Below, in pieces: positions 2,990-59,294 of a stretch of 64,000 nucleotides of DNA. Source of the DNA: a virus (taxonomy: Duplodnaviria; Caudoviricetes); IMG/VR virus record IMGVR_UViG_3300020049_007105, positions 1 through 64,000 of that record; one strand, written 5' to 3'. The first letter of the stretch is position 1, and the number at the start of each line of letters is the position of its first letter. Made by a program: the position numbers and the translations under genes. The notes under the pieces are model-generated. The model had not been told where the DNA came from. It saw only the letters and a program-made list of their open reading frames with translations, and ran no database searches.

Positions 2990-3748
2990 CAGGCGACGGT
3001 CACATAAGCCCTCTGGGAGCCCCTGTGTGGCCCCCTGTTGACCTTACAGGCCCCTCGGTGGACCACTGTAGTTGGATATGGTTTGCGGCGCTCAGACGGC
3101 GCTGTGTGGGCTACTAGTCAAAGTTGGGAAGCTTGGCGGCTCTTCTATCATCTTAGACATCTGATCTAAACTGTGCTCCATCTGCTTATTAAAAGCCGCC
3201 TTGTATTCCTCCAAGTGAGTCTCAGCGATCACAAGGTATCGAAAAGCCGCTTCGGGGATATCTTCATCTTTAACAATTCCCCAATCCTTCTCAAACTCGA
3301 ACGGGTAAGCCATAGACCAGTGGTCGTCCTTAAAGGACACCTCTGACCTGTGCTCTATCAATCGAAGCCTAAGTCCAGTTTTGCGATCCTGAACCCACCC
3401 GTTGAACTCACCGTACTGGATAGCTTTTAGGTCAGGAATAATCTCTTCAATAGTGGTCATCAGTAATCTTCCGTTTGCTTAGCGGCCACTTTTTCAGTGG
3501 ACTTAGCTTTCTGAAGAAGCGCAGACAAATCATCCCAGAGGTAGTAGCGGAGTGGCCGACCTGGGACTTCAAGAGCGACGGCCACCCCTTGTGTCAAACT
3601 TGGAGGCCACTCAATGTGGCTAATCAAGTCCTGCTGGCGATTATGGTAGAAACTCCAGCCGGGGACACTGGAGACCGGTTGCCACCCATTGTTATTCAGG
3701 AGTTGGGCATATCCATCAACAATAAGACCCCGAAGCAACTCGGCGCCC

Positions 3749-5334: not shown

Positions 5335-5766
5335 TCATTCATTGTAACACACCATGATAACCGAAAAACCTTCTGAAAGCTCACAGTTACAAACCATAGC
5401 TCTCAGCATATTCTTGGCATTTCCTTTGGCTAACATGTAGGCCGAGAACAATTCTCGGTATTCATGCTCATTTCTGGGCTTGTGAATGTAGTCAATACCA
5501 ATATCGACAATATGGCTGTAGTAAGTGCTATCAAAAACAGATTCTACGAGAGAAAGCTTGTTAGTCTCAAGAAGCACTACCCTTTGAGGGATTCCTTGAA
5601 TTACAGGCTTACATTCCACCCACATAGTGGCTTGCTTCTGATCTAACGTATAGTCGTCTGACACCCATTTAAAGTCAGCGTCTTGCCATTGCCTGATATA
5701 GATATCGGGAATAACCTTAAGTTGAGCCCGGTGGTCACTGTCGCTCAGTGCAGTAATTGTTGGCAT
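5335..5766 (-). CDS. hypothetical protein
   Basis: 143-aa ORF coupled (TAATG) to the upstream gene. Confidence 0.55.
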   Translation of the reverse strand: MPTITALSDSDHRAQLKVIPDIYIRQWQDADFKWVSDDYTLDQKQATMWVECKPVIQGIPQRVVLLETNKLSLVESVFDSTYYSHIVDIGIDYIHKPRNEHEYRELFSAYMLAKGNAKNMLRAMVCNCELSEGFSVIMVCYNE

Positions 5767-21384: not shown

Positions 21385-21400
21385 TGTGACGTTGGTCACA
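21385..21400. promoter_or_regulatory. CRP/GlxR-type palindrome
   Basis: TGTGA-CGTTGG-TCACA, exact TGTGA-N6-TCACA, in a divergent promoter gap. Confidence 0.55.
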
Positions 21401-25045: not shown

Positions 25046-27808
25046 TTACCGAATTGGGCAAACCCCGGTCGCACAAGCATCAGCCGTGTCCAGTTCAGAG
25101 CCTTCGCCACGCTCAAAAGCATTAACCACATCCACGTCCAACATGGGCTGCAATGCCACCATCATGTCATACTGGGCCTCAGTGATTTCCTCATACGGCG
25201 CCAACTCATAGTTGCCGCCATCATGGGCGAGGAACGAGACGGCCGTGAAGTCATCCCAGCCGTCAAACACAATGCTGGAAGCGTCATCCCACTCGTCAGA
25301 CTTAACCGAGATGGTATTGCTCGCATTATGCTCGCAATAGTTCCGCTGGAACATGAAGTAGGTGTCCAACTGGCCCTGAACGCTGGAGTCATGCCGGTTA
25401 GCTGTGGGCGAGTGAACGGGGAACTCCACAACGACTGTACGGGCGTTCTCCATGCGCTCTTCATGGGTAGCACCAGGGGTACCCACCTCAGGCTTAAGAT
25501 CGAAGCCAGACGCCCTCAGGCCCTCAGCAACAGGGTCGTGAGAGGAGATGCGGATGCGACGAATGTAGTACTCGGCAAACGGATCGTGAACACCGGGTGA
25601 AACACCACCGGCAACCAGAGACAGCGTGCCTTCTGGCTTAACAGTGGTCACGAGCAGTGGACGGTTAACACCAAGCTCATCAGCGTAAAGGTCGGCTTCG
25701 TCTCGGGCAACCTTCTTAAGGATTTCGAGAAGGTTTGCTTGGAACTCAGGGCCAGCACCAACGGCAGCCATTGCATCCTGCCAACCCGTGAGAGAGAGGC
25801 CCAACAGGCGATCCCTCTGCTGAACTTCATCCCACGCTGGAAGCTCTAAGGTGGGCATTGTCATGCGGAGACCAATTCTTGCGGACATCCGCTGAGCTTT
25901 CTCCAGCTCAAACAGGTCAATGCTGTCATCCTTGACGAAAGCAGCCACGTTCACGGTGGTCAGGTTACAGACGCCCTTGGAGTCCAACAGGATTTCTGCA
26001 CACGGGTTGAGCCCCATGTTCTTGGCAAGCTCACGAATCTCTTCACCGGTAGCACTCTCACCGAGACGGCGTGAGGCAGCCTCATAAAGGTTGATAAACC
26101 CAGGCTCACCCTCAGACTGCATCAGCTCGAAGACGAAATTCAGATACTCCTTGGATGGCTTGTCAATGAAACCAATGCTGTTATTACTCATGCGGCGGTG
26201 ATGGTGCGGACGGCCGGGGTTCATGAGGACAGCATTCACCAGATTGATTGGCTGCTCCTCCATGTCGCTGGCAAGCATCACGGCACCATCTTCAAGCTGG
26301 TAGTGCCGAACCTTAATATCTTCCCACCAGCCAGGCAGTGGAACCCCAGCGGCAATAGCGGCCTCTTCAATTCGGTCCAGCTTGTCAAAACCTTCTTGAC
26401 CCCAGATACCGTTGATACCGAACTTGGCGAAGATCGACTCGTAGTCGTCAGGATCACAGATAAAGATTTCCGCAGTCCGTCTAACACCACCGACCACAAC
26501 ATTATTCCCGATGAAGTTACCAATGTCCAAAACATGGACCGGACGAAGATGAACGTAGTCTGAGTTGTTCAACACACCGGAGGGGCCAAGACCATCGTGG
26601 TGATAGAACTCACCAGTGATAATCTGAGTGATCGCTTCAAACATCTCAATGAGGGGCTGTGGGCCAGATGCTCGACCACCAAAAGTCTTCAGCTTCTCAC
26701 CTGCTGGGCGCACGTTGGACACATCAAGAATGATTCCGACTTCACCGTCAAGCCATGTCTGAGACAGAAACTGGAAGTAGTAGGTGAGAGCCTGAACCCA
26801 ACCCTCCTTGGAATCACCAACCACGATAGTCAATTCGTTGTCGTCACTGATATGGGTCTCGGTGAACTCAATGCGGTCTTCCGTGGCAGCTGGAGAGTTT
26901 GTGCTTGAATAAGAGATGTTTCGGTACAGCGGTGCCAGCTTGTTAGCCATTTCAACCGAGCAACGAAAACCAACACCAGTTCCCACCATCAGCATATAGA
27001 ACAGGTCCGAAAGGTCACCCCAGCTCTCGGTCTTCGTGTAACTACAGTTCTTGGTCAGAACGCCATTAAACAGAGCAAACGTCTCGGTCTGTGGCTCCTC
27101 GACACACCAAACATCTTCGGTCTCATAGCTGTTGTAATGCTCCTGGACAACCCAGGGGCTATCAATTAGCGGTTCGCCGTTCATCTCTGCAATGGCCAAC
27201 TTATCACCTTCATTGAGGTTAACAGTAGTACGCTCAGCCCGAGAATCATCACCGTTAGTGGTCAGCCAGCGATGATTCTCGGTAGTGCGAATGGCAATAG
27301 ACTTACCTTCACGTTCCATGCGAAGAATAACAATCTTGGCTGGACCGAAGTTGCGAACCTTCGCCTTAACCCACATGCCCGACTCATTGAGAACCTTGAC
27401 CTTAGCGCCGTCCTTAAACTCATTGAATGACTTAATGCCACCACGAGTCATGAACTGGGTGTCGCCAGTGAAGCAATTGAACTGACTGGTGGGGTGCTTT
27501 TCGGCTGCACCAGATTCTGCCCCTCCAACCCACATGGTTCGTCCAGAGGGAAACTGGTTCAGATTGTAGACCGAATGGAACATTGCTTGAGCTTCAAACT
27601 TCTTGGCTTCAAAAGTCTCGCGGTCACCAACCAGGCCAACATTGTAGTTGGTCGCCCGTGCAACAGCTTCCTTGTAAGTCTCACGGCGTTCAGAGCCTTC
27701 TTCTCCAACAACTCGGCTGTAGGTCCGAAGGAAGGTGAACTTTCCAAGCTCGGTCATGTGCTCAGGGAAATCGCTGTAGTTGTTGAGGAATTCGTTGTCA
27801 AGGTACAT
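25046..27808 (-). CDS. nrdJ: class II (B12-dependent, monomeric-type) ribonucleotide reductase, intein-containing
   Basis: FLRTYSR, PSGR..W, FN/CS, VVVGGVRRTA, NPCAEI, TTVKPEGT, C-terminal CATGVCPIR. Confidence 0.92.
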   Translation of the reverse strand: MYLDNEFLNNYSDFPEHMTELGKFTFLRTYSRVVGEEGSERRETYKEAVARATNYNVGLVGDRETFEAKKFEAQAMFHSVYNLNQFPSGRTMWVGGAESGAAEKHPTSQFNCFTGDTQFMTRGGIKSFNEFKDGAKVKVLNESGMWVKAKVRNFGPAKIVILRMEREGKSIAIRTTENHRWLTTNGDDSRAERTTVNLNEGDKLAIAEMNGEPLIDSPWVVQEHYNSYETEDVWCVEEPQTETFALFNGVLTKNCSYTKTESWGDLSDLFYMLMVGTGVGFRCSVEMANKLAPLYRNISYSSTNSPAATEDRIEFTETHISDDNELTIVVGDSKEGWVQALTYYFQFLSQTWLDGEVGIILDVSNVRPAGEKLKTFGGRASGPQPLIEMFEAITQIITGEFYHHDGLGPSGVLNNSDYVHLRPVHVLDIGNFIGNNVVVGGVRRTAEIFICDPDDYESIFAKFGINGIWGQEGFDKLDRIEEAAIAAGVPLPGWWEDIKVRHYQLEDGAVMLASDMEEQPINLVNAVLMNPGRPHHHRRMSNNSIGFIDKPSKEYLNFVFELMQSEGEPGFINLYEAASRRLGESATGEEIRELAKNMGLNPCAEILLDSKGVCNLTTVNVAAFVKDDSIDLFELEKAQRMSARIGLRMTMPTLELPAWDEVQQRDRLLGLSLTGWQDAMAAVGAGPEFQANLLEILKKVARDEADLYADELGVNRPLLVTTVKPEGTLSLVAGGVSPGVHDPFAEYYIRRIRISSHDPVAEGLRASGFDLKPEVGTPGATHEERMENARTVVVEFPVHSPTANRHDSSVQGQLDTYFMFQRNYCEHNASNTISVKSDEWDDASSIVFDGWDDFTAVSFLAHDGGNYELAPYEEITEAQYDMMVALQPMLDVDVVNAFERGEGSELDTADACATGVCPIR
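27047..27475 (-). mobile_element. 143-aa mini-intein in RNR
   Basis: Starts CFTGDT; block B TTENHRW; block F VWCVEE; ends VLTKN followed by Cys+1; no endonuclease domain. Confidence 0.88.
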
Positions 27809-28279: not shown

Positions 28280-28405
28280 TGAACTACGTCCAAACGGTCG
28301 CTGTGGACCTATTGAGGTTAAGGTGCTTTCGGGAACCCTCCATCTTACACTCTAAGCGGCTCTATAACAATTGGAGCGTGTGTGACGTGTGTCATAGCCT
28401 GTACC

Positions 28406-29240
28406 AATAAAGTGAAAGACAGTTCCACGTATCGGCCCAAGCGTTCACGCGTGGTGGGTACCACTCTCCGACGCTCCATGTGTCAAGGGCTCTGTGGTGT
28501 ATTTTGCAGTCGGCGCCAGCCGATCTGCTGTTTGAGCGTAGCGAGTACGAGGGCGTAGCCCGAGGGGTTCGTAGCCGCAGGCCGAACCCGTGTCAGTAAC
28601 AGTTAGGAGACAAGGATCAGGAGAGACAGAACAAGAACTAAGCAGGAACCTACGTCAAGCGCAGTGTGTGTTTAGGTAGTACAACCCCGGATTCCGATGG
28701 TTTATTCCAACTAATTCAAATTCTTTCTGTGACGTGGGTCACAATCTCGAAATCGACCCCGGTCTGTACGCCAGCTTGCTCTTTGATCTGGCCAGCAAGG
28801 TCAGGGTCAGTCAGTGTCCAGATGAACTGAATTCCTTGCCAGTACAGCACTGTGACGAACGACACATCAGTAATTTGAAATAACGGGAATAAAGTGACGG
28901 GATTCGGTGTTTTACTACTTATTACATCCACACGCTCGACGTATGTTCCCACACAATATTACTCTCCTGACTTTACTGCCTCTCCTAACTCTTACTGTAT
29001 GGGTTGCGGCTGCGCCTAGCAACCCCTCGGGCTGACGCCCTCGTCCCCTCCCCGGGTCGGCTGGCGCCGACCGGGGAATTGAATAAAGAACAACGCAATG
29101 GAACGCCTGCACTGCGACGACCGGGACTCAGCGGTGCGAACCTACAGCCGGTGTCCACTTACGAGAGACGTGGTGACTGGTCACAACTACAGACGCCACC
29201 CACGATGGGGGCTAAGCATGGAACTGTCTTTCACTTTATT
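28406..29240. repeat. ~835-bp degenerate inverted duplication, putative bidirectional replication origin
   Basis: At least eight nested reverse-complement blocks, including a perfect 22-mer at 28406-28427/29219-29240; lies at the coding-strand switch. Confidence 0.8.
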
Positions 29241-29323
29241 TCGGTTAGACAGAGAGGGCTTAAGTCTAAGAATTTCGATCTTGTAGTAGAACACATTTGG
29301 CCTAGAATTCTGGAGAGAACAAC

Positions 29324-29656: not shown

Positions 29657-29696
29657 GTTTAGCGGGGAAGGCTTAGAGTTAGCTTCCTCGCTAAAC
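29657..29696. terminator. bidirectional terminator between holin and resolvase
   Basis: GTTTAGCGGGGAAG...CTTCCTCGCTAAAC stem between convergent genes. Confidence 0.6.
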
Positions 29697-30175
29697 TATT
29701 TCTGGGACTCGATTGCTTCTGCGAGAACCAGGTGTGCCCACCAGGCAACTGAAGCTGCATCAGCCAAGTCGTCGGGCCATTCAAGAAGCTCTGGCCAGCG
29801 TCCTCGCACCAACTTTACTGCGCCAGCCTTAGTCTGATTCTTCCAAGGCTTACGGTGCTGAGTGGCTTTCACACTGTGAGCGTCCAGCCCAAGTTGGTGA
29901 CAGGCCAGGAAAGCAGTCCCCCAAGCTCCACCTAATTTATTAGCTACTGCTGTGTTTCGAGCATGTGACGGGTCTTCAATTGCAGCGGTGTGGATTTCGA
30001 TTCCTTCGGCTATTTCTAGAATACCGGTAAGGATGAGATTGTAGCGTTCTCCGAGGGCTTGCTTGGAGTTAGTCTTGACGACTTTGATCTCTCGAATGCC
30101 TTCCCCTTCAAGCAGAACAATGCCTGTTGAGGTGAGAGATGGATCAATGCCGAGTGAGGTGATTTGATTGCTCAT
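29696..30175 (-). CDS. ruvC: RuvC-like Holliday junction resolvase
   Basis: LGIDPSLTSTG, AAIE and DDLADA acidic motifs. Confidence 0.8.
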   Translation of the reverse strand: MSNQITSLGIDPSLTSTGIVLLEGEGIREIKVVKTNSKQALGERYNLILTGILEIAEGIEIHTAAIEDPSHARNTAVANKLGGAWGTAFLACHQLGLDAHSVKATQHRKPWKNQTKAGAVKLVRGRWPELLEWPDDLADAASVAWWAHLVLAEAIESQK

Positions 30176-30291
30176 GGTCTCAATGATATCACTGACTGGC
30201 GATATTAGCAAATGGATTTGTTTTTTATCACTGGATGGTGTATACTGTATAAACAGACCCCGTGACTCGATAGTTTGATGGATGGAGAAAT

Positions 30292-30957: not shown

Positions 30958-31100
30958 ACGCTTTGACGCACGACGAGAAGAAGATGAAAGCCGTGGAGTT
31001 CTTGGAGGACGAGATGCTTGCTGGGGCTTTCATTAAGCTCGCACAGGAGGCTGCCAGCTTCAGGGTCCCACTGGACTTCTTGGTGGGAAGGCTCTGGTAA
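30954..31100 (+). CDS. 48-aa hypothetical protein (not in the ORF track)
   Basis: GTG overlaps the upstream TGA, GAGG RBS, and the ORF fills the gap to terL. Confidence 0.5.
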   Translation: MNALTHDEKKMKAVEFLEDEMLAGAFIKLAQEAASFRVPLDFLVGRLW

Positions 31101-31104
31101 GACA

Positions 31105-33192
31105 ATGATTGAGCGTCCTACTGAAGAAGAAGCTTGTTTGGTAGCAATCCTCCAAGACCACTCTGGGCTTGATCAGGCTGAGTTCATGTGGGTGGATAGG
31201 TCCGACATGGAGACTGGTGCTGACGCCTGTTGGCGTGCATGGCCCTTCCAGTACAGCTGGTGGCGCTGTAAGGACCCTAAGCAGATCGAGCAGGGGGCTC
31301 GGTGCTTGGCTGAGGGCACGCCTGTAATGTACCGTACAGGCCCCACAGAGCCGTGGCAGTGGAGCCCGATCGAGGACATTGAGCCTGGCGCTTGGGTGCT
31401 CACCCATACTGGCAACTCTAAACAGGTCATTGCTGTTCACGATAACGGTGTCGAACCGACTGTGAGCGTAAGTCTGTTTAATGGTATTCGCATCCGATGC
31501 ACCCCTACCCACAAGTTCTACACGAAGGATGGGGCAGAGGTTGGCTGGAAAGACCCATTGAACTGGGACCGCCATACGAAGGTTCGGGTGTATATTAACG
31601 GTGAGTGGTCCTGGGAGAATGTTCGGACAATTGCCGAAACCCCTGACTCTTGCCGGGTTTATGACCTAGAGGTCGAGGATGACCATAGCTATGTCGCCAG
31701 TGGGATTGTGGTTCACAACTCTATTGGCAAGTCGCTGGGGATTAAGGCACGAGCCACGGCTTTTCCTTTCTGCTACCCAGGTCAGGAGATGGTTCTTACT
31801 GCACCAGAAAACAAGCATCTTTTGACGATTACTGACTCGATTGAAACTGCGTATAGTTCAAGCAAGATTCTTTCGTCCATGCTTAAGTCTGGAGTTCAGG
31901 GGATTACCCACCGGCCGTTCAAGATGAACTTCAAGAATGGTGCTCGTATTCTCGGTGCGACTCCGAACACTGACGGCTCTGGTGTGAAGGGTTTGCACCC
32001 TATCGTTCTGGAGCAGGATGAGGCTTCTGACTACCCCCATAGGGGCTGGATTGAGCTTATCGAGACTGTTAAGCAGACCAGTGGCAGGAGCGAATGGCGG
32101 GCACACGGCGTAACCAGGGGTGTTCAGGATAGATTCTGGAGCTACACTCAGCCCGACTCGGGTTGGAAGGTTCACCACATTTCAGCAATTCACCGCCCCA
32201 CTTGGACGGACGAAGAGCGTCAGTCAAAGATCAGGGACTATGGCGGTGGTGCTAGTGACCCTGAGTATTTGAGAAACGTGATGGGTCTTCACGGTAACGC
32301 TGTGAACCCTATCTTCATTAAGTCTCGTCTAGCGGAGTGCTTTAACTTCGACATGGACTCCAAGCACAACAAGGACGAGTACCAACACTATACGATTACG
32401 AGTGAGATGATCGAGGATGCTGGTGGTATCGACTTGTTTCTTGACCTGCCCTACTCACACAAGAAGTACAAGAATGTGTGGATCGGAATGGACGTTGGCT
32501 ACACTGAGGACCCAACTGAGATTTTGTGCTTCGCTGAGGTTCTAAAGGCAGGTAAGGTCACCCTGAAGTTGGTTAGCCGGTTCTCTCTTCAGAGGAATAC
32601 GGTTAACGATCAGAGTACTGCCATGATGTACCTGTTAGACTTCTATGACACGAAGGCTTTCGGTATGGACGGTACTGGTAACGGCCTGCCGCTGTATCAG
32701 AGTGTCATCCATACGGCCAGCACGGACCCTTACTACAGGGCTCAGGGCTATCAGCATATGATCCAGAGCTACAACTTCTCTCAGAAGATCATGATCGGCT
32801 ATAAGGATACTGCCCTTGAAGTGGAGTCTGAGAATCCGCTGGCTGACGACTTGAAGGACGTTGAGTACGACGAAGAAATCTTTAGGCCGGTTCTTGAGTA
32901 TAGCACAGATGTGCTCAGATACCTGGTGGACAACACGCTGCTCCAGATGCCCGGTGACAATGATGTCTACAACCACTTCCAGGCCCAGACCTACATGATC
33001 CGCAAGGCTAAGACTGATGAGTATGGCCGTTCAAGAAAGTTCTCTAGCGGTTCTTATCACACTCTGGACGCAGCGAGAATGGCAGCGCTGGCTTGGAGGC
33101 AGGCCAAGATTGCTGAGATTGAAGAGGCTCGTCGCCGTGGCAAGGAGCACGCCTTTGTCCCGGTACTATCCAGAATGACAACCCAGTTCTAA
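31105..33192 (+). CDS. terL: terminase large subunit, intein-containing
   Basis: Spliced Walker A GAR/SIGKS, Walker B LEQDEA, nuclease IGMDVG...DPT, MDGTGNG, HTLDA. Confidence 0.88.
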   Translation: MIERPTEEEACLVAILQDHSGLDQAEFMWVDRSDMETGADACWRAWPFQYSWWRCKDPKQIEQGARCLAEGTPVMYRTGPTEPWQWSPIEDIEPGAWVLTHTGNSKQVIAVHDNGVEPTVSVSLFNGIRIRCTPTHKFYTKDGAEVGWKDPLNWDRHTKVRVYINGEWSWENVRTIAETPDSCRVYDLEVEDDHSYVASGIVVHNSIGKSLGIKARATAFPFCYPGQEMVLTAPENKHLLTITDSIETAYSSSKILSSMLKSGVQGITHRPFKMNFKNGARILGATPNTDGSGVKGLHPIVLEQDEASDYPHRGWIELIETVKQTSGRSEWRAHGVTRGVQDRFWSYTQPDSGWKVHHISAIHRPTWTDEERQSKIRDYGGGASDPEYLRNVMGLHGNAVNPIFIKSRLAECFNFDMDSKHNKDEYQHYTITSEMIEDAGGIDLFLDLPYSHKKYKNVWIGMDVGYTEDPTEILCFAEVLKAGKVTLKLVSRFSLQRNTVNDQSTAMMYLLDFYDTKAFGMDGTGNGLPLYQSVIHTASTDPYYRAQGYQHMIQSYNFSQKIMIGYKDTALEVESENPLADDLKDVEYDEEIFRPVLEYSTDVLRYLVDNTLLQMPGDNDVYNHFQAQTYMIRKAKTDEYGRSRKFSSGSYHTLDAARMAALAWRQAKIAEIEEARRRGKEHAFVPVLSRMTTQF
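31303..31719 (+). mobile_element. 139-aa mini-intein in the TerL Walker A
   Basis: CLAEGT...CTPTHKFY...VYDLEV..HSYVASGIVVHN followed by Ser+1. Confidence 0.92.
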
Positions 33193-40198: not shown

Positions 40199-40399
40199 GT
40201 GTCAAAAGTAATTCTAACTAAGGGCCTCCCGGCATCGGGTAAAAGTACTTGGGCAAGAGGATGGGTTGCAAAGAAGCCTACTGCTCGTGTCCGGGTTAAC
40301 AAGGATGATCTCCGTGAAGCACTTCATGGAGGTAAGTTCTCTAAGGGCAACGAGAAGGACATTCTTGACGCTGAAGCGGCGGATGGGCTGTATGCCTGA
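40199..40399 (+). pseudogene. truncated polynucleotide kinase (Pnk, AAA_33-like) N-terminus
   Basis: VILTKGLPASGKSTWAR...RVNKDDLR is the Pnk kinase start; the frame stops after 66 aa, inside the dnaE start region. Confidence 0.75.
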
Positions 40400-43300
40400 A
40401 TTTGTACACCTACATCAACATACTCACCACTCCATGCTGGATGGTGCATCTAAGGCTTCTGACGCTGTTGCTGAAATTGTTCGCCAGGGTGGCAAAGGTC
40501 TTGCTATTACTGATCATGGTAATATGTTCGGCGCTGTTGACTTCTACCGGGAGTGCAAGAAGCAGGGTGTCAACCCTATTCTGGGTATTGAGGCTTATGC
40601 CGCTAAGGCTGGGGTGGGTGAACGCCCGAGTACTTCTAAGAAGGTTGGTGAGGGGGACGAGGGTGGTAACACTGCTAGCGGAAAGGCATATTACCACCAG
40701 CTTCTTTTGGCTAGGAACTATGAGGGTTTTCAGAATCTGATGAAGCTTAGCTCTAGGGCCTATACTGAGGGCTTCTATTACAAGCCACGGCTCGATCTGG
40801 CGATGTTGGAGGATCACTCCAAGGGTCTGATTGCTACTACCTCTTGCCTTGGCGGTGTTCCTCTTCAGCTCATTATGGCTGGCAAGGATCGTGAGGCTAT
40901 GAACTATGTGGCCGGTCTTAAAGATATTATGGAGCCAGGCCATCTTTTTGTGGAGCTTCAGGACCATGGCATCCTTGAACAGAAGGAGACTAACCCGACA
41001 CTTATTCAGATTGCCAGGAAGCTCGATCTCCCCCTTGTTGCTACGAACGATTCCCATTATGTTCACGCTCATGACCATGAGACCCATGATGCGCTTTTGT
41101 GCATCCAGACTCGTGCAAAGATTTCTGACACGGATCGGTTTAAGTTCCAGGGCCAGGATTTCTATCTGAAGACTGCTGATGAGATGGCACGGGTCTTTGA
41201 TGGTCTCCCTGAGGCTTTGTCTAACACCATGTTGATTAACGATATGGTGGATATTGAGCTACCCACTCAGATCAGTGGGTTGCCGCACTTTCCTTTGCCG
41301 GAAGGTTTTATTGATGAACGTGATTATCTTACCCATCTAGTAAAGCTTGGAGCCAATAAGCGCTATGCCGGAACTGATGTGGATTTTGATGCGGTGGTGG
41401 ATCGAATTGAATATGAACTGGGCGTCATTTGTGAGATGGGCTTTGCGTCCTATTTTCTGATTAACTGGGATTTGATTCGGGAGGCTCATGAGCGAGGCAT
41501 CCTCTGTGGTTTTGGCCGGGGCAGTGCGGCTGGTTGTGCTGTTGCATATTGCTTGAACATTACCAAGGTTGACCCGATTCGGCATGGCCTAATTTTTGAG
41601 CGGTTCCTGAATCCGTCCAGGGTTTCGATGCCTGATATTGATTCAGACTTTCAGGCTGACCGTCGAGATGAACTCATTCAATACCTCAAGGACACCTATG
41701 GTATTGATCATGTTGCTCAGGCGATTACTTTCGGAGTGATCCGCTCTAAGGCTGCACTGAAGGATTCGACTAGGGTCCAAGGCTATGACTACGCTGATGG
41801 CGAAAGACTGTCCAAGGCTTTCCCTGACCCCCTGTTTGGCCGTCAGGCGCCCATTGGAGCGGTGCTACACGAGGTTCCGGGACTTGAGTGGGCCTATGAG
41901 AGCGGGCAAGATTTCCGTGCCTTAGCGGGCTCCACACCGGCTATGAGCGCTATCGTGAAACTGGCTCAAGCCATTGAGGGCATCAAGCGTTCTGAGTCGA
42001 TTCACCCAAGTGCGCTTATTATTTCCGACAGGCCCCTCCTTGAGGTGTGCCCTACAGGCCGGAAGCCCGGTGGACCACTATTTACTCAGTGGGAGCAGGA
42101 TATTCTTGAAGCCCTTGGCCTCCTGAAGCTCGACATCCTTGGGTTAAAGAACTTGGACATTTTGGGAAGGTGCATTACAAGGGTTTTGGCCGCTGGCATT
42201 GAGGTCCCCGACATCTATGAATCCAACCCTCAGTTTAAGGATGAGGCTACATATAAGCTTTTAGCGGCCGGTAAGTCTATTGGCGTGTTTCAGCTTGAGT
42301 CTCCAGCCATGAGGGCTCTGCTGAGAAAGATGGTGCCGAACTCCATTGAGGACATCTCGGCAACTATCGCTTTGTATCGTCCAGGGCCAATGTCCCAGGA
42401 CTACCATAACATTTTTGCTGATAGGAAGAATGGTCGAGTCCCTATTGCAAGCATCCATGAACGACTGGAGCCGTTGCTAAAGGACTCCTACCAGCTCCCA
42501 ATCTACCAAGAACAGGTCATGACCATCAGTCGTGAGGCTGCTCAGTTTGATATGGTTGAGGCTGACAACATGCGTAAGGCCATGGGTAAGAAAGATCAGG
42601 GCCTCCTTGATTCTTTCCGTGAGAAGTTTGTTCAGGGTTGTATTGACAATGATTACACCGAGGAATTCTCTAACAGACTGTTCGATGGTCTAGAGGATTA
42701 CGCCAGCTATGCGTTTAACGCTTCTCACAGTATGGGCTATGCGTATTTGTCATACTGGACTGCATATTTCAAGGCTAACCACACTGGGTTCTATATGGCG
42801 GCACTAATGGATTATGCCGCTGACCTAGACGGTTTGAAGCCCTTGCTGGCAGAGACTCAGAGTTTGGGTGTTAAGATCATGCCCCCTACGGTCCAGTCTA
42901 AGATGAACAGCTTCACTTTTGACCCAGAGGTTAACGGCATTCACTTTCCTTTGTCTTCGATTAAGGGTGTTGGTAAGATTGGTGATATAATCTCTGAGGG
43001 CGCCCCATATGATGATGTGTGGGATTTTGCTGCCAGAGTGGCTATCAATGCTAGCGCTTTCCAAGCGGTCGCCAGGTCAGGTGGTTTTGATTCTCTGACT
43101 GACGAGACAAGGGAGACTCTGATTTTTAATCAGGATACGATACTTACACACGGAAGGTCTAAGATCAAAGACAACAAGGTTGGTGCTATGTCTCTGTTTG
43201 GGGATGAGGATTTCTATCCCGAGTTGGAACAGAACCCGGAGCCTGAGGATGAGGCGGTAACGCTTAATCACGAGAAGGATTACATAGGTGTGTTCCTGAG

Positions 43301-43619
43301 TGGTCATCCCGTGGATGGCTTCGAGGGTATTTCGGAGATGTTTATCTCTGAGATCAATGAACACGAGTTTGACGGTTCTTATATTGTTGCCGCTTATCTT
43401 GATAAGGCTACTGCCTTCAGGACTAAGAAGGGCAAGATGATGGCGAAGTTGACACTGGAGGATAGGTCGGGCTCGCTTGAGGCAGTTCTGTTTCCGAATA
43501 GTTACAAGATTTTTGAGGCTGATCTGAAGGATAAGCAGGTCTATGATTTCACTCTTAAGGTGTCTCACCGCCAAGGGGAGGTGACGATTTCGGTAGACAG
43601 TATGACGCAATTGGATTAA
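40392..43619 (+). CDS. dnaE: DNA polymerase III alpha subunit (phage DnaE)
   Basis: PHP domain FVHLHQHT.HS.LDG, AITDHG, TNDSHY; polymerase GRGSAAG, MPDIDSDF, KLDILGL; C-terminal OB fold. Confidence 0.95.
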   Translation: MPEFVHLHQHTHHSMLDGASKASDAVAEIVRQGGKGLAITDHGNMFGAVDFYRECKKQGVNPILGIEAYAAKAGVGERPSTSKKVGEGDEGGNTASGKAYYHQLLLARNYEGFQNLMKLSSRAYTEGFYYKPRLDLAMLEDHSKGLIATTSCLGGVPLQLIMAGKDREAMNYVAGLKDIMEPGHLFVELQDHGILEQKETNPTLIQIARKLDLPLVATNDSHYVHAHDHETHDALLCIQTRAKISDTDRFKFQGQDFYLKTADEMARVFDGLPEALSNTMLINDMVDIELPTQISGLPHFPLPEGFIDERDYLTHLVKLGANKRYAGTDVDFDAVVDRIEYELGVICEMGFASYFLINWDLIREAHERGILCGFGRGSAAGCAVAYCLNITKVDPIRHGLIFERFLNPSRVSMPDIDSDFQADRRDELIQYLKDTYGIDHVAQAITFGVIRSKAALKDSTRVQGYDYADGERLSKAFPDPLFGRQAPIGAVLHEVPGLEWAYESGQDFRALAGSTPAMSAIVKLAQAIEGIKRSESIHPSALIISDRPLLEVCPTGRKPGGPLFTQWEQDILEALGLLKLDILGLKNLDILGRCITRVLAAGIEVPDIYESNPQFKDEATYKLLAAGKSIGVFQLESPAMRALLRKMVPNSIEDISATIALYRPGPMSQDYHNIFADRKNGRVPIASIHERLEPLLKDSYQLPIYQEQVMTISREAAQFDMVEADNMRKAMGKKDQGLLDSFREKFVQGCIDNDYTEEFSNRLFDGLEDYASYAFNASHSMGYAYLSYWTAYFKANHTGFYMAALMDYAADLDGLKPLLAETQSLGVKIMPPTVQSKMNSFTFDPEVNGIHFPLSSIKGVGKIGDIISEGAPYDDVWDFAARVAINASAFQAVARSGGFDSLTDETRETLIFNQDTILTHGRSKIKDNKVGAMSLFGDEDFYPELEQNPEPEDEAVTLNHEKDYIGVFLSGHPVDGFEGISEMFISEINEHEFDGSYIVAAYLDKATAFRTKKGKMMAKLTLEDRSGSLEAVLFPNSYKIFEADLKDKQVYDFTLKVSHRQGEVTISVDSMTQLD

Positions 43620-52598: not shown

Positions 52599-55500
52599 AT
52601 GGCTGGTTCAGACTATCTTCTAAATTTCAGAAGTAACGTATCCCCTGTCCTTTCTGATCTTCGGAAGGTTGAAGTAGCTGCCCTTAAGGCACAGAATGTT
52701 GCCCGTGGCGCTACGAAGTCTACACCTCTCACTCCGGCTCAGCAGGCTGGTGGTGTTCTTGGTGTTGGTGTTAATCCCCAGGACACCAAGAAGTCTCTTG
52801 CTGCCACTAAGCGAGCTATTGGCGAGCAGGTTGCTGCTGCTAGAGCCCTCCAGGTGGCTCAGGGTGAAACTCTAGGGAAGCTGTCTAAGGGAAAGCCTGT
52901 TTTTGCTGGGTCTAAGAAGACTCTTGGTGAAGAATTCAATCTCAAGTCAGTGGCAGCTAGGTTTAAGGTTGATGCTGGTGAACTAGAGCGCTCTATTCTT
53001 GCCAGCTCTGCCAGGATTAGCTCAGCTTACAACAAGATGCTGTCTGGGCTCAAGCCGGGACTCGACCCCCAGGCTGCGGTAAGGGAGCGGTACCGAAAGA
53101 GGCTTGAGACAGCTAAGCCTGTTCAAGATTTGGTGCCTCAGGGTCCCAGAACTTTTACCGCCCCGACGCCGGTTTCCCCCAGGTCTACTTTTACAAGCAC
53201 AGGTCGAGCACTAGAGAATCTAAATAAGTTCTCTGGACAACCTTTAGGACTGGGTGGACCAGGAGCTAAGGCTACGGCAGCTAAGCAGAAGGAGCTTGCT
53301 GCTGCTATTGCTAGGACTACTCGTGCAACCGAGGCTGCTTCTGTTCGTATCGCTGGCCTTCTAAGTAAGGGTGAGGCCGCTGCGCTGAGTGCTAAACTCC
53401 GCAAGGTTGGTGACGGTGCGTTGGCTGGAAATATTCCTGGTCAGCTCACTGGCGTTTCACCCCAAGATCGGGTTAACGCTAAGGTTGACCGGGATTTCGG
53501 TAGCCAGCTTCGCAGCATTAATAAGAATGCTACCGCTAAGTTCGGGGCTGATGTAGCTCCTCAGAAGATTGCTGCGGAACTTCAGCGGGTTGCAGCCCTT
53601 CCTAGCGATCTTGTCGCTGATGAGATCGCTCGTTTGGACTCCGCTCTCAAGGGTGGTAGGGGTAAAACTGTTGATGCTGGTACCGCCTATGGCTCTCCAT
53701 TGCTTGCCGATGCTAGCGCTGTTGACCACAAGCGTGTCTATCAGGAGCACAAAGAGGCATATGGGGCAGTAAACAAGAGGCTTAAAGAGACGACCAAGCC
53801 CATGGAGGGCTTTAGACGTGAGGCTTCACAGCTTAATGGCGTGTTTGCTCAGAGTCGTTCCAGGATTCGTAATGGCTTTGCTGGCTTTGTAGACACTTTG
53901 GCGGGTCAGTCTAAGGTTATCGGTTCAAGCATTGGCCTAGGCGAGGGTGCTCAAGAAAAGAAGGCCCTGAATCGACAGGGTGCTGGTGGACTCAAGGGCA
54001 TGATGGGGGCAGGCATTCAGTCTGCTCTCCAGTACACTCTTCCTTCCCTCGCCCTCTTCGGTGCAGGCAGGTTCCTCAGCAACTCCTTCAAGGAGGCCGA
54101 GGAATACATGAAGGCCATGAAGCTGGTTGAGGGCCAGATTGAAAGTTTGATGGCCGCTCAGTACTCAGGCGCTGAGGCAACTCAGAAAGCCCGTGAGGGC
54201 ACCGAGAAGATGTCTAAGTCGATTCGCGAGACTGCGGCCGCTTACGGTATTGAGGCTGACATTCAGGCCAAGGTGGAGTCTCGTTACGTTGGCGCCTTCC
54301 AAGACAAGTCCATCGGTGGTTTGAGTGGCCTAAGTCTTGCAAGTGAACAAGGCAAGGGCTCCGCTAAGATGGCAGCAGTCCTTGGTATTAGCCCCGATGA
54401 GTTGACTGATGGTGTTGTTGCCATTTCTCGTGCTTACGGTATCCTGTCGGAAGATATTGGTGACACTGCATTGGAAATGCAGGAGTCTCTTGGTATTGAT
54501 GCTGGTGACACCGTGGCAGTTCTTGGTGATGTGTCCGCTGTTGCCAAGGAGGCTGGTATCGGCTTCGAGGAACTGTCAGGCATTATTGGTGTTACGCTCA
54601 AGAACTCGGGACGTCCAGCAGCGGAAATTGCTGAAGCCTATACCCGTGTCCTTCCATTCATCTCTCAGCAGAAGACCGAACTCCTTGAGATGTCTTCTGC
54701 TGTTAAGGGACTGAATACTGACACCTTCAAGATGGCTGTAGCCAATGGAGATAACCTGACTGTTCTCCAGCAGCTTGGTAAAGCCTACCAGTTGGCTAAC
54801 AAGGAGGGCCGTAAGCAGGACGCCCTTTCTATCGGTAGCATTGTTGGTGATGAGCGACAAGCCAAGGCTGTCTTTCCCTACCTGGCTGACATTAAGGGGG
54901 CAGACACTCTTACTGAACGGTTGAAGTCGGGTAGTCAAGATGGGGCACTTGAGGCCCGCTATCAAGAAATTTCTAAACTGATCACCCAGTCGATGAAGGA
55001 AACCTCAGAGTCTTTCAAGCAGCTCTCCAAGGTGTTTCTTGAGTCAGGCATTTCGGATGCCCTAGTTGCGATCATTAGGGGTTTCGGTACTCTCGCCGAA
55101 ATGCTCACTACCGTTGCCCAGAAGTTCTCGGGCGTTTTCTCAATCATGGTCAAGGCTGGCATTGCAGCAACTGCCCTTGCAGCCGCAACTTCGCTTGTAG
55201 CACAGGCACAGCTCTGGGCCACCAAGTCTACTGTCGTGAAGGGTGGCGCTGACCTTCTTTCTCGTTCGGGTAGCAGTATGCTTGCGGGTTTTGGTGCCTC
55301 TTTGAAGAGTGCTGGCCCTGCTGGTGCTGCAACAGCGAGTAAACTAAGCCTAGACCTGGCATCCGGTGCCAGTGGCGCAGCACTGCCAGCAGCCGCCAAG
55401 GCTTCTGCTCAGAAGGCTGGCGGTAAGATTGCTGCGGATGTCTCTGGAGCCGTCATACTGGGTGCTGCCCCCGCTGCTGGCGCCAGTGCGGCAACTACTG

Positions 55501-58500
55501 GCGCTAGCAGCGCCCTGGGAGCCGCTGTAGCGTCCAGGCAGGGCGGGGGTGGCCTCTTCGCTGCCTCCCGTGCTGCTGCCTCTAAGGGCTCTGTGAACCT
55601 CGCCAAGAGCTTTGTGGCACCCTTCACTGCGGGTATGGCGGGCGGCTTTAAGGCTGGCTTGAGTGCTCTCGTGGCGAGCCCTGCTGCCCCTGTGGCTATT
55701 GCTGCACTTGGTATTGGTTATGCAGCTAACAAGAAAGCTAAGTCGCTTGCCGAAGAGTCAATTAAGAGGCAGAATAAGACTTCTAATAAGATCAATGATG
55801 CCAAGACTGCTGCTGAAGCTGCACAGGGGACGGCTGCGGAGAGGGCTAGGCTGGAAGAGAGCTTCGAAAATGACATCCTGGATAGAGTTGGCCTGAACGA
55901 TACCGGCTGGATGGGTGAGGTCAACAGGATGAACCCTGTGGCGTTTGGTAGGGCTGGTATCGAGGCTGGTTGGGATTATGCTACCGGAAAGAAGGGGAAT
56001 AAGGACAGGGAGAGGGACCAGTACTTCTCTGACCTAGAGAATAAACTCGCTGGCGAAAACGAAACCTTTGAGCAGTTAGATGCCCTATTTAACAGTGAAA
56101 AGACCGAAGATTTCGCTAAAGAGATCAATGAAGTCTTTAACAGGTATGAGGGTAGGGTTAAGGACGGAAAAGTCAACACTGCCGTTCCTGAAAAGTTTGC
56201 TATTGAGCAAGCGTTGTTTGCTCAATTGTATAATGACCAGGCTGCTATTCAGGCTGGTATCATAGACAAGGTCACGGGCAAGGTCACTCTGACCCAAGAG
56301 AACCTTGAGGGCTTGGCGGCAGCGACTCAGAGTGATGACCAGCAGGAGTCTACTGCTGCACTGGCAACACTCAATCTCTTGCTGGGTTCTACTGGCAAGG
56401 CAGCCTTCAAGAATGCTGGCGATGTAGCTTCAGGTGTAGACAAGGACTTTCTTGAGGCTCTGGCTGAGGCGACGGGCAAAACTGATGAACAGAACAAGGA
56501 GATCGAGAAGATCGCCTATTCTGTTGAGGAGACTAAGGCCCTTCTCGATCAAGGTAAAATTTCAACTGCTACCTATTTAAATAAGCTTGCTGAGGCTCGT
56601 GAGGGTCTGGAGCTTCTTGTAAAAGAAGACCCAAACAACAAGCAGCTTCAGGCGGATTTGAACAAGGCTGCCACTGCTGAGAATGAAGCTAAATTGAAGA
56701 GGGCAACCGACCTCTTAGACTCTAGGATTGCGAACCTAGACACAGTTTTCGGTACTGAGGATTCTGCCGAGAAGGATTTCGCCGGTATTTCTACTGTCAG
56801 AAGGACTTTGAAAGAAAATCCAGAAATTGAAAAGAGTCCTGAAAAGTTCACTGAGCTTGCCAAGCAGCTCAATGACTACCAAAGGTCGATCGCTCAACGT
56901 ATGGTTGATAATGCCGTGGACGATGGCGACCTCAAGAAAGCTAAGGAGATTGCTGAGAAAGGCTATGAGGTTCCAAAAGAGTACCAAGAGGCAATGCTTG
57001 GTGTTGAATTTCAGAATAGTGACAACAGTAAGCTGACTTCGCTGATTGATTCTATTTCGTCTCAGACAGAGAAGAATGGGGCCATGTTCCTTGCTGGGCT
57101 TACCTTAATGAGTAACGCTCGTGCCATAGAGGCTGCCAAGGCAATGAAGAACCTCCTTGAGGCTCAGTTCATTACCAGGAATAGTGACGTACTCCTGGAA
57201 GACATGAATAAGGCTATGTCTGGAGAGGAACCCTTCTTTGCCGAGCCCGACAAGAAGAAGCCCGCTTATCAGGTTGAGTACGAGAAGGCCCAAAAGGGTT
57301 TAGATGAATTCATTAAGTCCAAGCGTGAAGGAAGTCTAGAGAAAGATTACGGGGTTACTACGCCCAAAAAGGGCGCCAAGGGCAAGGTTAAGGGGCCAAC
57401 CGACAAAGAGATTGCCGAAGACGAGAAGAAGAAGGCCGAAGAGGCAGAGAAAAAGGCCGAGGAAGCGAAGCAAAAAGCCGAAGAAGCTCGTCAGAAGGCT
57501 AAAGAGGACGCTCAATCCCGTGTTCAGAATGCCATTGACAGAGCCAAGTCTGTTTCCCGTAAGAATCCGCTGGCTTTGGCGCAATTGGATGTCCAGCAGG
57601 CCACTCAGCTTCTGGCTATCGCTAAGAGCTACGGTGACGCTTCAGAGATTGAAGCCGCCATTACTGCTTCGCTCCAGGCGCAACACGCTCGGGAAGATGC
57701 GCTAACAGCCATCGCTGAGTCCCAGCGAGATATGTCTTTTGAACTCCAGAAGCTACAGTTCCGTAAGGATGTTGTAAAGACAGCTCAAATTGACTCGCAG
57801 TCTGCTTTGGCTAGAGCTGAGGCTGCTGCAAAGACAGGTAATGTCATTGAGTACAATACCGCTATCGTTGCCTTAAGGCAGGCCGAGGCGGTTCTGAATG
57901 ATGCTATGAGTGAGCGAGCGCTGGCTGTCTACAATACGACGGTTGACTTGTGGAAGCTTGCACGGAGAGAAGACCCTGTTGCTCAAGCCTCTGGTGAGGT
58001 TTCAAAGGCACTGGCAGCCCTGAATTTTGCTCAAGCTTCTGGGAATCCAGATGAGGTTCGTGACGCTGGTCTGGCTGTGTATCAGGCTAAGGCTGAGATG
58101 GCTGATGCTGTGAGAGACGCTGGTAGGCAGCGCATCGAGGACTACTACTCTCTTCTGGAACTCCAAGCTCAGGGCGACCCTGTGGCGGTTGCGAATATCC
58201 AGATTCATAAGGCATTCCAGCAGTTGGCAATGTCTTCCCAGGCCACCATGGCTGCCGATCAACAGGCCATGATTTCTGCTCAGCAGGCCATGAAGGATGC
58301 CAATGTAGACATCATGCGTAGCACTATTGAGTTCCAGAAGGCCGCTGCTGATCCTGAGGATGCTGTGGCTCAGGCTGAACTTGACGTGAAGATGGCTGAA
58401 CTTGAGGTCGCTGTCGCTTCAGGTCAGGCAGCTAAGACTCGTGCTAGGGCAAGGTTGATTGAAGCTCAGAGGTCCCTCCAGGAGGCTAAGAAGTCTCTGA

Positions 58501-59294
58501 ATCAGGGGGAATTCGAAGCCTATATCAATCTCTTTAAAGCCTTCTATGACATGAATGACATCGCTATCGCTCAGATGGATGTAGCGCTGGCTGACAACAA
58601 GATGAAGGAAGCTAAGACTAAGGCCGAAAGGATTAACGCTCAGGCTGATAAGATTAGGGCTCAGCAAGGTCAGGCCAACGCCCTGAGGGAAATTCAAGAG
58701 GCTAATGACAATCTGGCTCAGGCCATGCTTGAGTTTGTTGGCGACTCTGTTGCGGCTTCTGATTATGCCGTAGTGGCTGCTCGCAGAAACTTGGATGACA
58801 TTCTAGCCAAGTATCGTTCAGGTAAGGCTGATGGCGGTGATGTGGCCGGTGCCAGGGCTGAGTTGACGAATGCTCTCGGTCGCCAGCGTGATTCCATTCT
58901 GAATGACAAGAAGGATCAGTACAGTTTCCTGTACGACATGGAGAAGATTTCCAAGTCTCAGTATGTGGCGTATCTTGAACAGCTCCGCCAGATGCCTGAT
59001 CTCACCCAGGACCAGCTTCGTGACATTGAGCGCCAGATCAAGGGGCTCAAGGATGACTTGGGTGCCGACCTCCAGTTCAACCTTCCGAGCATTTTGTCCA
59101 TGCCTGGCTTCTACGAGGCTCGTAGGCTTGACCAGACTGCCCAGACCCCTGGTTACAGCATTGGTTATCAGGACAACCGTGACGTTCAGATCACGTTGAA
59201 TATCTCCAACGGTATGACTCAGCAAGAGGCTACTGACATGCTGGGTGCCGCACTTAACGATAATAGAACTGGTAACAGAATCGGGAGGTACTGA
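52599..59294 (+). CDS. tape measure protein
   Basis: 2231 aa, Ala-rich helical with a central hydrophobic stretch; synteny. Confidence 0.92.
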   Translation: MAGSDYLLNFRSNVSPVLSDLRKVEVAALKAQNVARGATKSTPLTPAQQAGGVLGVGVNPQDTKKSLAATKRAIGEQVAAARALQVAQGETLGKLSKGKPVFAGSKKTLGEEFNLKSVAARFKVDAGELERSILASSARISSAYNKMLSGLKPGLDPQAAVRERYRKRLETAKPVQDLVPQGPRTFTAPTPVSPRSTFTSTGRALENLNKFSGQPLGLGGPGAKATAAKQKELAAAIARTTRATEAASVRIAGLLSKGEAAALSAKLRKVGDGALAGNIPGQLTGVSPQDRVNAKVDRDFGSQLRSINKNATAKFGADVAPQKIAAELQRVAALPSDLVADEIARLDSALKGGRGKTVDAGTAYGSPLLADASAVDHKRVYQEHKEAYGAVNKRLKETTKPMEGFRREASQLNGVFAQSRSRIRNGFAGFVDTLAGQSKVIGSSIGLGEGAQEKKALNRQGAGGLKGMMGAGIQSALQYTLPSLALFGAGRFLSNSFKEAEEYMKAMKLVEGQIESLMAAQYSGAEATQKAREGTEKMSKSIRETAAAYGIEADIQAKVESRYVGAFQDKSIGGLSGLSLASEQGKGSAKMAAVLGISPDELTDGVVAISRAYGILSEDIGDTALEMQESLGIDAGDTVAVLGDVSAVAKEAGIGFEELSGIIGVTLKNSGRPAAEIAEAYTRVLPFISQQKTELLEMSSAVKGLNTDTFKMAVANGDNLTVLQQLGKAYQLANKEGRKQDALSIGSIVGDERQAKAVFPYLADIKGADTLTERLKSGSQDGALEARYQEISKLITQSMKETSESFKQLSKVFLESGISDALVAIIRGFGTLAEMLTTVAQKFSGVFSIMVKAGIAATALAAATSLVAQAQLWATKSTVVKGGADLLSRSGSSMLAGFGASLKSAGPAGAATASKLSLDLASGASGAALPAAAKASAQKAGGKIAADVSGAVILGAAPAAGASAATTGASSALGAAVASRQGGGGLFAASRAAASKGSVNLAKSFVAPFTAGMAGGFKAGLSALVASPAAPVAIAALGIGYAANKKAKSLAEESIKRQNKTSNKINDAKTAAEAAQGTAAERARLEESFENDILDRVGLNDTGWMGEVNRMNPVAFGRAGIEAGWDYATGKKGNKDRERDQYFSDLENKLAGENETFEQLDALFNSEKTEDFAKEINEVFNRYEGRVKDGKVNTAVPEKFAIEQALFAQLYNDQAAIQAGIIDKVTGKVTLTQENLEGLAAATQSDDQQESTAALATLNLLLGSTGKAAFKNAGDVASGVDKDFLEALAEATGKTDEQNKEIEKIAYSVEETKALLDQGKISTATYLNKLAEAREGLELLVKEDPNNKQLQADLNKAATAENEAKLKRATDLLDSRIANLDTVFGTEDSAEKDFAGISTVRRTLKENPEIEKSPEKFTELAKQLNDYQRSIAQRMVDNAVDDGDLKKAKEIAEKGYEVPKEYQEAMLGVEFQNSDNSKLTSLIDSISSQTEKNGAMFLAGLTLMSNARAIEAAKAMKNLLEAQFITRNSDVLLEDMNKAMSGEEPFFAEPDKKKPAYQVEYEKAQKGLDEFIKSKREGSLEKDYGVTTPKKGAKGKVKGPTDKEIAEDEKKKAEEAEKKAEEAKQKAEEARQKAKEDAQSRVQNAIDRAKSVSRKNPLALAQLDVQQATQLLAIAKSYGDASEIEAAITASLQAQHAREDALTAIAESQRDMSFELQKLQFRKDVVKTAQIDSQSALARAEAAAKTGNVIEYNTAIVALRQAEAVLNDAMSERALAVYNTTVDLWKLARREDPVAQASGEVSKALAALNFAQASGNPDEVRDAGLAVYQAKAEMADAVRDAGRQRIEDYYSLLELQAQGDPVAVANIQIHKAFQQLAMSSQATMAADQQAMISAQQAMKDANVDIMRSTIEFQKAAADPEDAVAQAELDVKMAELEVAVASGQAAKTRARARLIEAQRSLQEAKKSLNQGEFEAYINLFKAFYDMNDIAIAQMDVALADNKMKEAKTKAERINAQADKIRAQQGQANALREIQEANDNLAQAMLEFVGDSVAASDYAVVAARRNLDDILAKYRSGKADGGDVAGARAELTNALGRQRDSILNDKKDQYSFLYDMEKISKSQYVAYLEQLRQMPDLTQDQLRDIERQIKGLKDDLGADLQFNLPSILSMPGFYEARRLDQTAQTPGYSIGYQDNRDVQITLNISNGMTQQEATDMLGAALNDNRTGNRIGRY

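Follow-up and report, generated by a model that had tools for sequence, protein, structure and literature searches.

Paired hairpin clusters between the divergent gene blocks of a large uncultured phage: candidate folded single-stranded DNA start signals

For large uncultured phages, almost nothing is known about origins and early control regions. One region of such a phage offers a compact and testable element in which the problem can be addressed: two clusters of small hairpins, one in each arm of an inverted duplication, lie in the gap between divergent gene blocks. On what molecule do these hairpins fold, and what are they selected to do? The window considered here covers the opening 64 kb of a virus record of 99,899 bp, itself judged to be 73% complete; close strains of this uncultured phage reach about 120 kb, and samples that contain it include SRR17409986, ERR12510824 and ERZ28653773.

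The gap and its hairpin clusters

The genes to the left of 28.3 kb lie on the minus strand and include a class II ribonucleotide reductase (RNR), a dUTPase, an exonuclease and RNA ligases. Those to the right of the gap lie on the plus strand and include a holin-like open reading frame (ORF), an intein-bearing large terminase, a portal-like protein, a YonB-like capsid protein, DnaE and a tape measure protein; past the tape measure gene, the plus block continues with a primase-helicase and then RecA. The nearest neighbours of the gap are a 105-aa ORF and the class II RNR on the left (-) and the holin-like ORF, followed by the terminase genes, on the right (+). The clusters belong to an inverted duplication that has diverged (about 28506-28745 and 28851-29077), with arms that are 66-73% identical overall and 81% identical across the hairpin part. 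Each arm carries a cluster of about 80 nt with three hairpins (four in the left arm), placed on the strand that reads 5'→3' toward the centre. The features, with the hairpins labelled H1 to H3, are as follows.

28280-29323, no strand: non-coding gap between the divergent gene blocks, 1,044 bp
28406-28427, no strand: outer inverted repeat, left copy, outward reading GGAACTGTCTTTCACTTTATT, identical at 22/22 positions to 29219-29240
28506-28528 (core 28510-28523), +: H1 left, GCAG-TCGGC-GCCA-GCCGA-(T)-CTGC; its cap GCGCCAGC fits GCGNNAGC
28534-28546, +: GAGCGTAGCGAGT with a GCGTAGC mini-hairpin, left arm only; loop N polymorphic (T or C)
28551-28561, +: H2 left, GGGC-GTA-GCCC, which includes GCGTAGC
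28565-28589, +: H3 left, GGGTTCG-TA-GCC-GCA-GGC-CGAACCC, which includes CCGCAGG
28594-28650, +: conserved CAGTAACAGTTAGGAGA block, then a purine-rich tract; read outward, a C-rich, G-poor leader
28746-28850, no strand: central spacer, 105 nt, nearly neutral evolution
28981-28997, -: right copy of the CAGTAA.AGTTAGGAGA block
29001-29025, -: H3 right, GGGTTGC-TA-GGC-GCA-GCC-GCAACCC, which includes GCGCAGC; loop N polymorphic (GCA or GTA)
29029-29040, -: H2 right, GGGC-GTCA-GCCC; GCGTCAGC fits GCGNNAGC; GTA loop in two strains
29049-29077 (core 29057-29070), -: H1 right, TCCCCGG-TCGGC-GCCA-GCCGA-(C)-CCGGGGA; bulge base polymorphic
29219-29240, no strand: outer 22-nt inverted repeat, right copy

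The conservation of the outer 22-nt repeat far exceeds that of the remaining arm sequence, and the repeat might represent a further outward promoter or a site for a protein.

Several other features of the wider genome were recorded. The reductase (25046-27808, -) has 920 aa versus about 775 aa in the relatives L006 and L007, and the large terminase (31018-33192, +) contains an intein splicing domain that is missing from the L007 terminase. A minus-strand ORF inside the plus block (29696-30211) has a weak RuvC-like match in the precomputed strain annotation. The 2,231-aa ORF at 52599-59294 (+) has no sequence match in Pfam, PHROG or PDB and is grouped with tape measure proteins by language-model features (0.97). 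At the convergent junction of plus and minus blocks (G000 74411-74442), a hairpin with a 14-bp stem, flanked on either side by A and T tracts, resembles a terminator that works in both directions.

A number of familiar explanations for such a region were tried and rejected. A telomere-resolution site or a pair of joined linear ends is not consistent with arms that are only about 70% alike, with the lack of a perfect central palindrome or with a junction that is identical in independent assemblies. A cos or pac site at the centre would fall in the least conserved part of the region, an invertible segment is contradicted by eight haplotypes that are all collinear, and coding arms are contradicted by inter-arm indels that break any frame. 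The 78-aa ORF at 28716-28952 (-), called as a gene in public assemblies, is probably not one, as its strain polymorphisms show no bias toward the third codon position (4/17). Nor are the hairpins intrinsic terminators: they have no U tails, unlike the evident terminators of the phage, which combine UUCG or UUUC loops with U tails.

Matched stem changes and selection on folding

The bulged main hairpin was found as the earlier note had described it: the left (+) and right (-) copies of H3 differ by three C:G/G:C flips and keep the same bulge and loop, and the neighbouring GGGC/GCCC and TCGGC-GCCA-GCCGA hairpins are present in both arms. The accompanying claim that a GNA triloop is kept holds for H3 of both arms but not for H2, in which an invariant GGGC/GCCC stem carries a GTA loop on the left and a strain-polymorphic GTCA loop on the right. 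The H1 core TCGGC-GCCA-GCCGA is invariant in both arms and is accompanied by a one-base bulge; the outer stem of H1, GCAG/CTGC on the left versus CCCCGG/CCGGGG on the right, represents two further double changes. Across the 23 stem pairs of both arms, five double compensatory changes and no single-sided change are found (neutral P about 1e-9, at 34% inter-arm divergence). Four of the five are C:G/G:C transversion flips, which have no wobble intermediate, and the DNA fold z-scores of the hairpins range from -3.3 to -4.6.

Variation among strains follows the same pattern. Fourteen close-strain contigs represent eight haplotypes that are 96.8-99.9% identical over the gap, with identities of 97.4-99.2% in the arms, 94-96% in the flanking genes and 91.4% in the 105-nt centre, so that the arms, as the most conserved part, are constrained, and the centre, as the least conserved, is close to neutral. 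Among the 92 stem nucleotides only one site varies in the eight haplotypes, versus about eight expected at the rate of the centre. This site, 28528, belongs to a terminal pair, and its polymorphism leaves a G.T wobble on the hairpin (+) strand and a C.A mismatch on the other. The remaining variants of the hairpin region affect the middle loop base of right H3 (GCA to GTA), the GTCA/GTA indel of right H2, the bulge base of H1 and the loop N of the left-only mini-hairpin.

The junction is retained in only two distant relatives, L006 (portal identity 57%) and L007/L008 (49%), and H2 and H3 are absent from both L006 and L007. In L006 the H1 core recurs as CGGC-TGGC-GCCG with a different but again complementary outer stem, GGACG/CGTCC. 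In L007 a nested hairpin surrounds GCGCCAGC, and mini-hairpin motifs are found on the other strand with respect to the L007 promoter block. The more distant portal relatives L013, L015 and L075 have another gene order in which the junction is absent. A DNA search of GenBank phages gave no match to the region; viral, metagenome and genome collections scanned for the hairpin-block and promoter-block patterns yielded only chance matches, plus the identical contig L090; and viral contigs searched at the protein level, using the 105-aa ORF and the portal as queries, gave no match.

The inter-arm compensatory changes, the covarying outer stem in L006 and the avoidance of stems by strain variants bear out the proposal that folding within each strand is under selection, and selection on the hairpin structure can be taken as very highly probable. 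Quasi-palindrome template switching is nevertheless an established mutational mechanism that can yield complementary changes without selection, so that the matched changes might have arisen by such templated mutation inside a diverged inverted duplication and have no function. This process should erase bulges, yet the TA and one-base bulges persist in both arms and in all strains. It would also leave the arms more conserved than flanking coding DNA while the centre drifts, and the strand-specific G(N)NA caps described below, without explanation. An absence of function is thus highly improbable.

A second possibility that does not require a folded single strand is that a regulator binds the hairpin sequences as palindromic operators in duplex DNA, or as cruciforms. 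The 14-nt H1 core is the same in the two arms and across all strains, and 12 nt of it are found in L006, which suggests sequence-specific recognition. Symmetric flips and covarying outer stems, however, are unexpected for a duplex site read by one protein, and bulges disfavour the extrusion of a cruciform, making this explanation unlikely.

The folded molecule: single-stranded DNA or leader RNA

As the stem pairs of both arms are all Watson-Crick, the stems alone do not indicate which strand has been selected. All seven loop caps fit the consensus for DNA mini-hairpins, GCG(N)NAGC or CCGNAGG (taken from PMC13037366), with four on the plus strand in the left arm, three on the minus strand in the right arm and none on the opposite strands. 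The two arms are the densest 100-nt bins of the genome for this motif (four in 90 nt, P about 1.8e-6), and the loop variants among strains retain the G and A ends, one of them alternating between N and NN. The melting temperature of DNA mini-hairpins is about 76 C, versus 39 C for their RNA counterparts (PMC13037366). They occur in G4-type origins (G4 oric), in RSF1010 ssiA and in N4 promoters, and the mini-hairpin of phage G4 has been proposed to stay free of SSB (review, PMC13037366). The phage caps match the consensus (GCGNAGC / GCGNNAGC) but top longer, bulged stems.

The confinement of DNA-type caps to the inward-reading strand favours single-stranded DNA over RNA, as the earlier note had held. 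A comparison of DNA and RNA folding, which it had recommended, adds nothing to this, since thermodynamics alone separates neither DNA from RNA nor one strand from the other. The other part of the picture is that the clusters lie inside the leaders of conserved promoter-like motifs, so that a role in leader RNA stays a serious rival. On present evidence the balance leans somewhat toward single-stranded DNA as the selected form.

The motifs in question have the bipartite form (G/T)GGAATAAA-N15-GTT and lie centre-proximal to each cluster, pointing outward, with a spacer that is fixed in length and variable in sequence.

28683-28709, -: left promoter-like motif, TGGAATAAA-N15-GTT (= GGAATA-N17-GTT), leftward
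28728-28743, no strand: CRP-like palindrome TGTGACGTGGGTCACA, centre about -62 from the inferred left transcription start
28851-28866, no strand: CRP-like box TGTGACGAACGACACA, one mismatch, centre about -62 from the inferred right transcription start
28885-28911, +: right promoter-like motif, GGGAATAAA-N15-GTT, rightward

The motif can be aligned in four copies (both arms, L006 and L007) even though the small protein encoded next to it shares just 24-26% identity. In the relatives, copies are found at 5633-5658 (-) and 5667-5692 (+) of L006, back-to-back, and at 3606-3631 (+) of L007, and every copy points to a first gene or operon start 380-455 nt away. Left-type copies (the left arm of the window and L006) are closer to each other than are the two arms, and the same is true of right-type copies (the right arm of the window and L007), which suggests that the duplication is older than these phages. 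The motif matches the sigmaH/sigmaR consensus GGAAT-N18-GTT with exact spacing; this consensus is actinobacterial. The motif is not repeated elsewhere in the genome, and the 21 genome-wide matches to GGAAT-N18-GTT are at about chance level. A distance of about 62 nt upstream of the inferred start, at which both CRP-like boxes are centred, is the classic activator position. TGTGACG-type CRP-like palindromes also occur at 21385-21400, in a divergent gap at 21.4 kb, and at 28381-28396.

The phage has a sigma-like segment of its own that differs from the sigmaH/sigmaR (ECF) type, being of FliA/WhiG type and apparently without region 4. It is found in a 517-aa open frame (G000 72805-74358; L011:8805-10358, +), where regions 2-3, with region 4 not clear, are in frame with a full RecA and no stop intervenes. 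This frame might represent a fusion, the remains of a decayed sigma gene, or RecA with an internal start.

Given these outward motifs, the hairpins would be transcribed, at about +80 to +165 of the inferred leaders, whose starts are predicted near 28673 (-) and 28921 (+). Lying in untranslated leaders of about 400 nt behind two outward alternative-sigma promoters, they might act in the nascent RNA, where they could serve in put/nut-like processive antitermination, as a pause, or as a stability or processing element for blocks of 28 kb and 45 kb. Besides the conserved outward motif, aimed in every copy at a first gene, and the CRP-like boxes, there is the base composition of each inferred leader, whose initial 80 nt are rich in C and poor in G, as a Rho loading site is. 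There is also a precedent of similar layout in the putL and putR sites of HK022, two-stem RNAs of about 70 nt downstream of divergent PL and PR promoters (PMC9378689). With HK022 putL/putR and lambda nutL/nutR the phage element shares paired, bulged stem-loop modules of about 70-85 nt downstream of divergent promoters (promoter-like motifs in the phage) and a structure backed by left/right covariation. It differs from them in that its loop chemistry points to the antisense DNA strand and in having no Rfam or other sequence match, no boxA and no known partner.

Other details of the clusters are likewise difficult to reconcile with a function in RNA. The loops of the outward RNA would be UNC or UNNC, matching none of the known stable RNA motifs, and it is the antisense strand that carries the DNA-specific G(N)NA caps. 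Zero G.U pairs are present, and the sole wobble polymorphism becomes the C.A mismatch when read in the outward RNA. Neither U tails nor further copies of the promoter motif in the genome are available to support it, and in L006 the H1 hairpin overlaps the -10/+1 region of the rightward motif, so that the RNA of that phage could not hold the whole hairpin. Action in leader RNA is accordingly a tentative alternative, with odds clearly below even.

The position of the hairpins on the template strand for outward transcription raises one further possibility, in which a phage polymerase or another single-stranded DNA-binding factor would read the template-strand mini-hairpins and transcribe outward, as at N4-type hairpin promoters. 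The mini-hairpin to which the N4 mini-vRNAP binds is GCGGAGC, with a stem of 5 bp and a loop of 3 nt. No vRNAP-like gene is found, however, in the approximately 100 kb seen, where the 2,231-aa ORF looks like a tape measure protein, and a transcription signal of this kind is quite improbable.

Possible paired signals for the start of replication

Matched stem changes combined with a DNA-specific loop motif on one strand indicate that the hairpins are probably folded single-stranded DNA signals. As the hairpin strand of each arm is the template for outward synthesis, their most likely role would be that of paired, strand-specific start signals. The loop motif, the strand specificity and the pattern of variants favour DNA while the leader position keeps RNA alive, so that a folded single-stranded DNA start signal is ranked first, at a rough probability of 0.4, with a put/nut-like leader RNA as its main rival. 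That the pair provides the start signals for two outward leading strands in particular is a more doubtful proposition.

As start signals, the clusters might operate as follows. The small hairpins, made unusually stable in single-stranded DNA by their mini-hairpin caps, would signal priming or replisome loading on the inward-reading strand of each arm, and synthesis from primers on this strand, which bears the hairpins, would proceed outward, in the manner of RSF1010. The result would be a bidirectional origin embedded in the divergent promoter region, for which the phage would supply its own Toprim-DnaB primase-helicase and DnaE polymerase. Gene content is in keeping with such a scheme, as the phage encodes both DnaE, at 40266-43619, and a primase-helicase, at 69180-71120 of the genome (a DnaG_N/Toprim/DnaB_C protein). 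The full combination, in which a large tailed double-stranded DNA phage would have a bidirectional origin of two mini-hairpin clusters, used by a T7-like primase-helicase and DnaE and fused to divergent alternative-sigma promoters, is rather unlikely to hold in every part.

Several observations count against an origin. The centre is almost unconstrained, and the relatives L006 and L007 do not share the arrangement. No AT-rich unwinding element was found (minimum GC 0.40), and the 100 kb seen of the approximately 120-kb genome contain no iteron array, Pri-type primase or initiator, leaving without specific support the suggestion that the hairpins recruit a primase or helicase loader. GC skew tracks gene orientation, to the extent that a plus-strand lysin gene inside the minus block shows positive skew, and the skew minimum is therefore not independent evidence for an origin.

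Comparison with known systems illustrates both the attraction and the limits of the start-signal interpretation. The ssiA and ssiB sites of RSF1010 form an inverted repeat, with one site on each complementary strand (PMC8567376). The analogy drawn with them in the earlier note survives in part: both systems have a pair of similar hairpin signals, inverted and on complementary strands, from which synthesis would proceed outward, and both have C-GNA-G caps (CCGAAGG in ssiA, CCGCAGG and GCGCAGC in the phage), but no RepB'-type primase, RepC or iterons are found in the phage sequence seen. The phage arm, moreover, has three hairpins in about 80 nt where RSF1010 has one 40-nt signal, there is no sequence similarity between them, and the phage element belongs to a tailed phage of about 120 kb, inside transcribed leaders if the promoters are as predicted.

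The G4-type origins (G4, St-1, alpha3) likewise have a cluster of stem-loops in single-stranded DNA that includes a mini-hairpin, which in the present phage is predicted. The G4 origin is primed by a DnaG-type primase, and this phage encodes a Toprim/DnaG-like primase-helicase. The G4-type origins differ in that their phages have single-stranded DNA and carry just one signal, confined to one strand, and the arms of the present phage share no conserved start triplet.

A PriA-type primosome assembly site, as in phiX174 and ColE1, does not agree with hairpins on the outward-transcription template strand. The 13-mer GAGCGTAGCGAGT, which had been noted for its likeness to the ColE1 region, is a match of doubtful meaning: the right arm has no copy, and the left copy falls in an 11-nt indel between the arms. 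The 13-mer does occur in common vector sequences. In the strains L099 and L097, a change of the loop base turns the equivalent of 28534-28546 into an exact GAGCGCAGCGAGT, which is present in common pBR322-derived vectors.

The covarying stems, the polymorphism among strains and a loop motif specific to DNA all point to a folded single strand in the control region of this phage. The flanking GGAATA-N17-GTT motifs suggest, in addition, that an alternative sigma factor serves both gene blocks in these phages. If the clusters act in RNA, they would represent a new put/nut-like leader module. If they are replication start signals, hairpin-type priming would extend to large double-stranded DNA phages, with an ssi-type origin found outside small plasmids and single-stranded DNA phages and a sequence rule by which other such origins could be sought.
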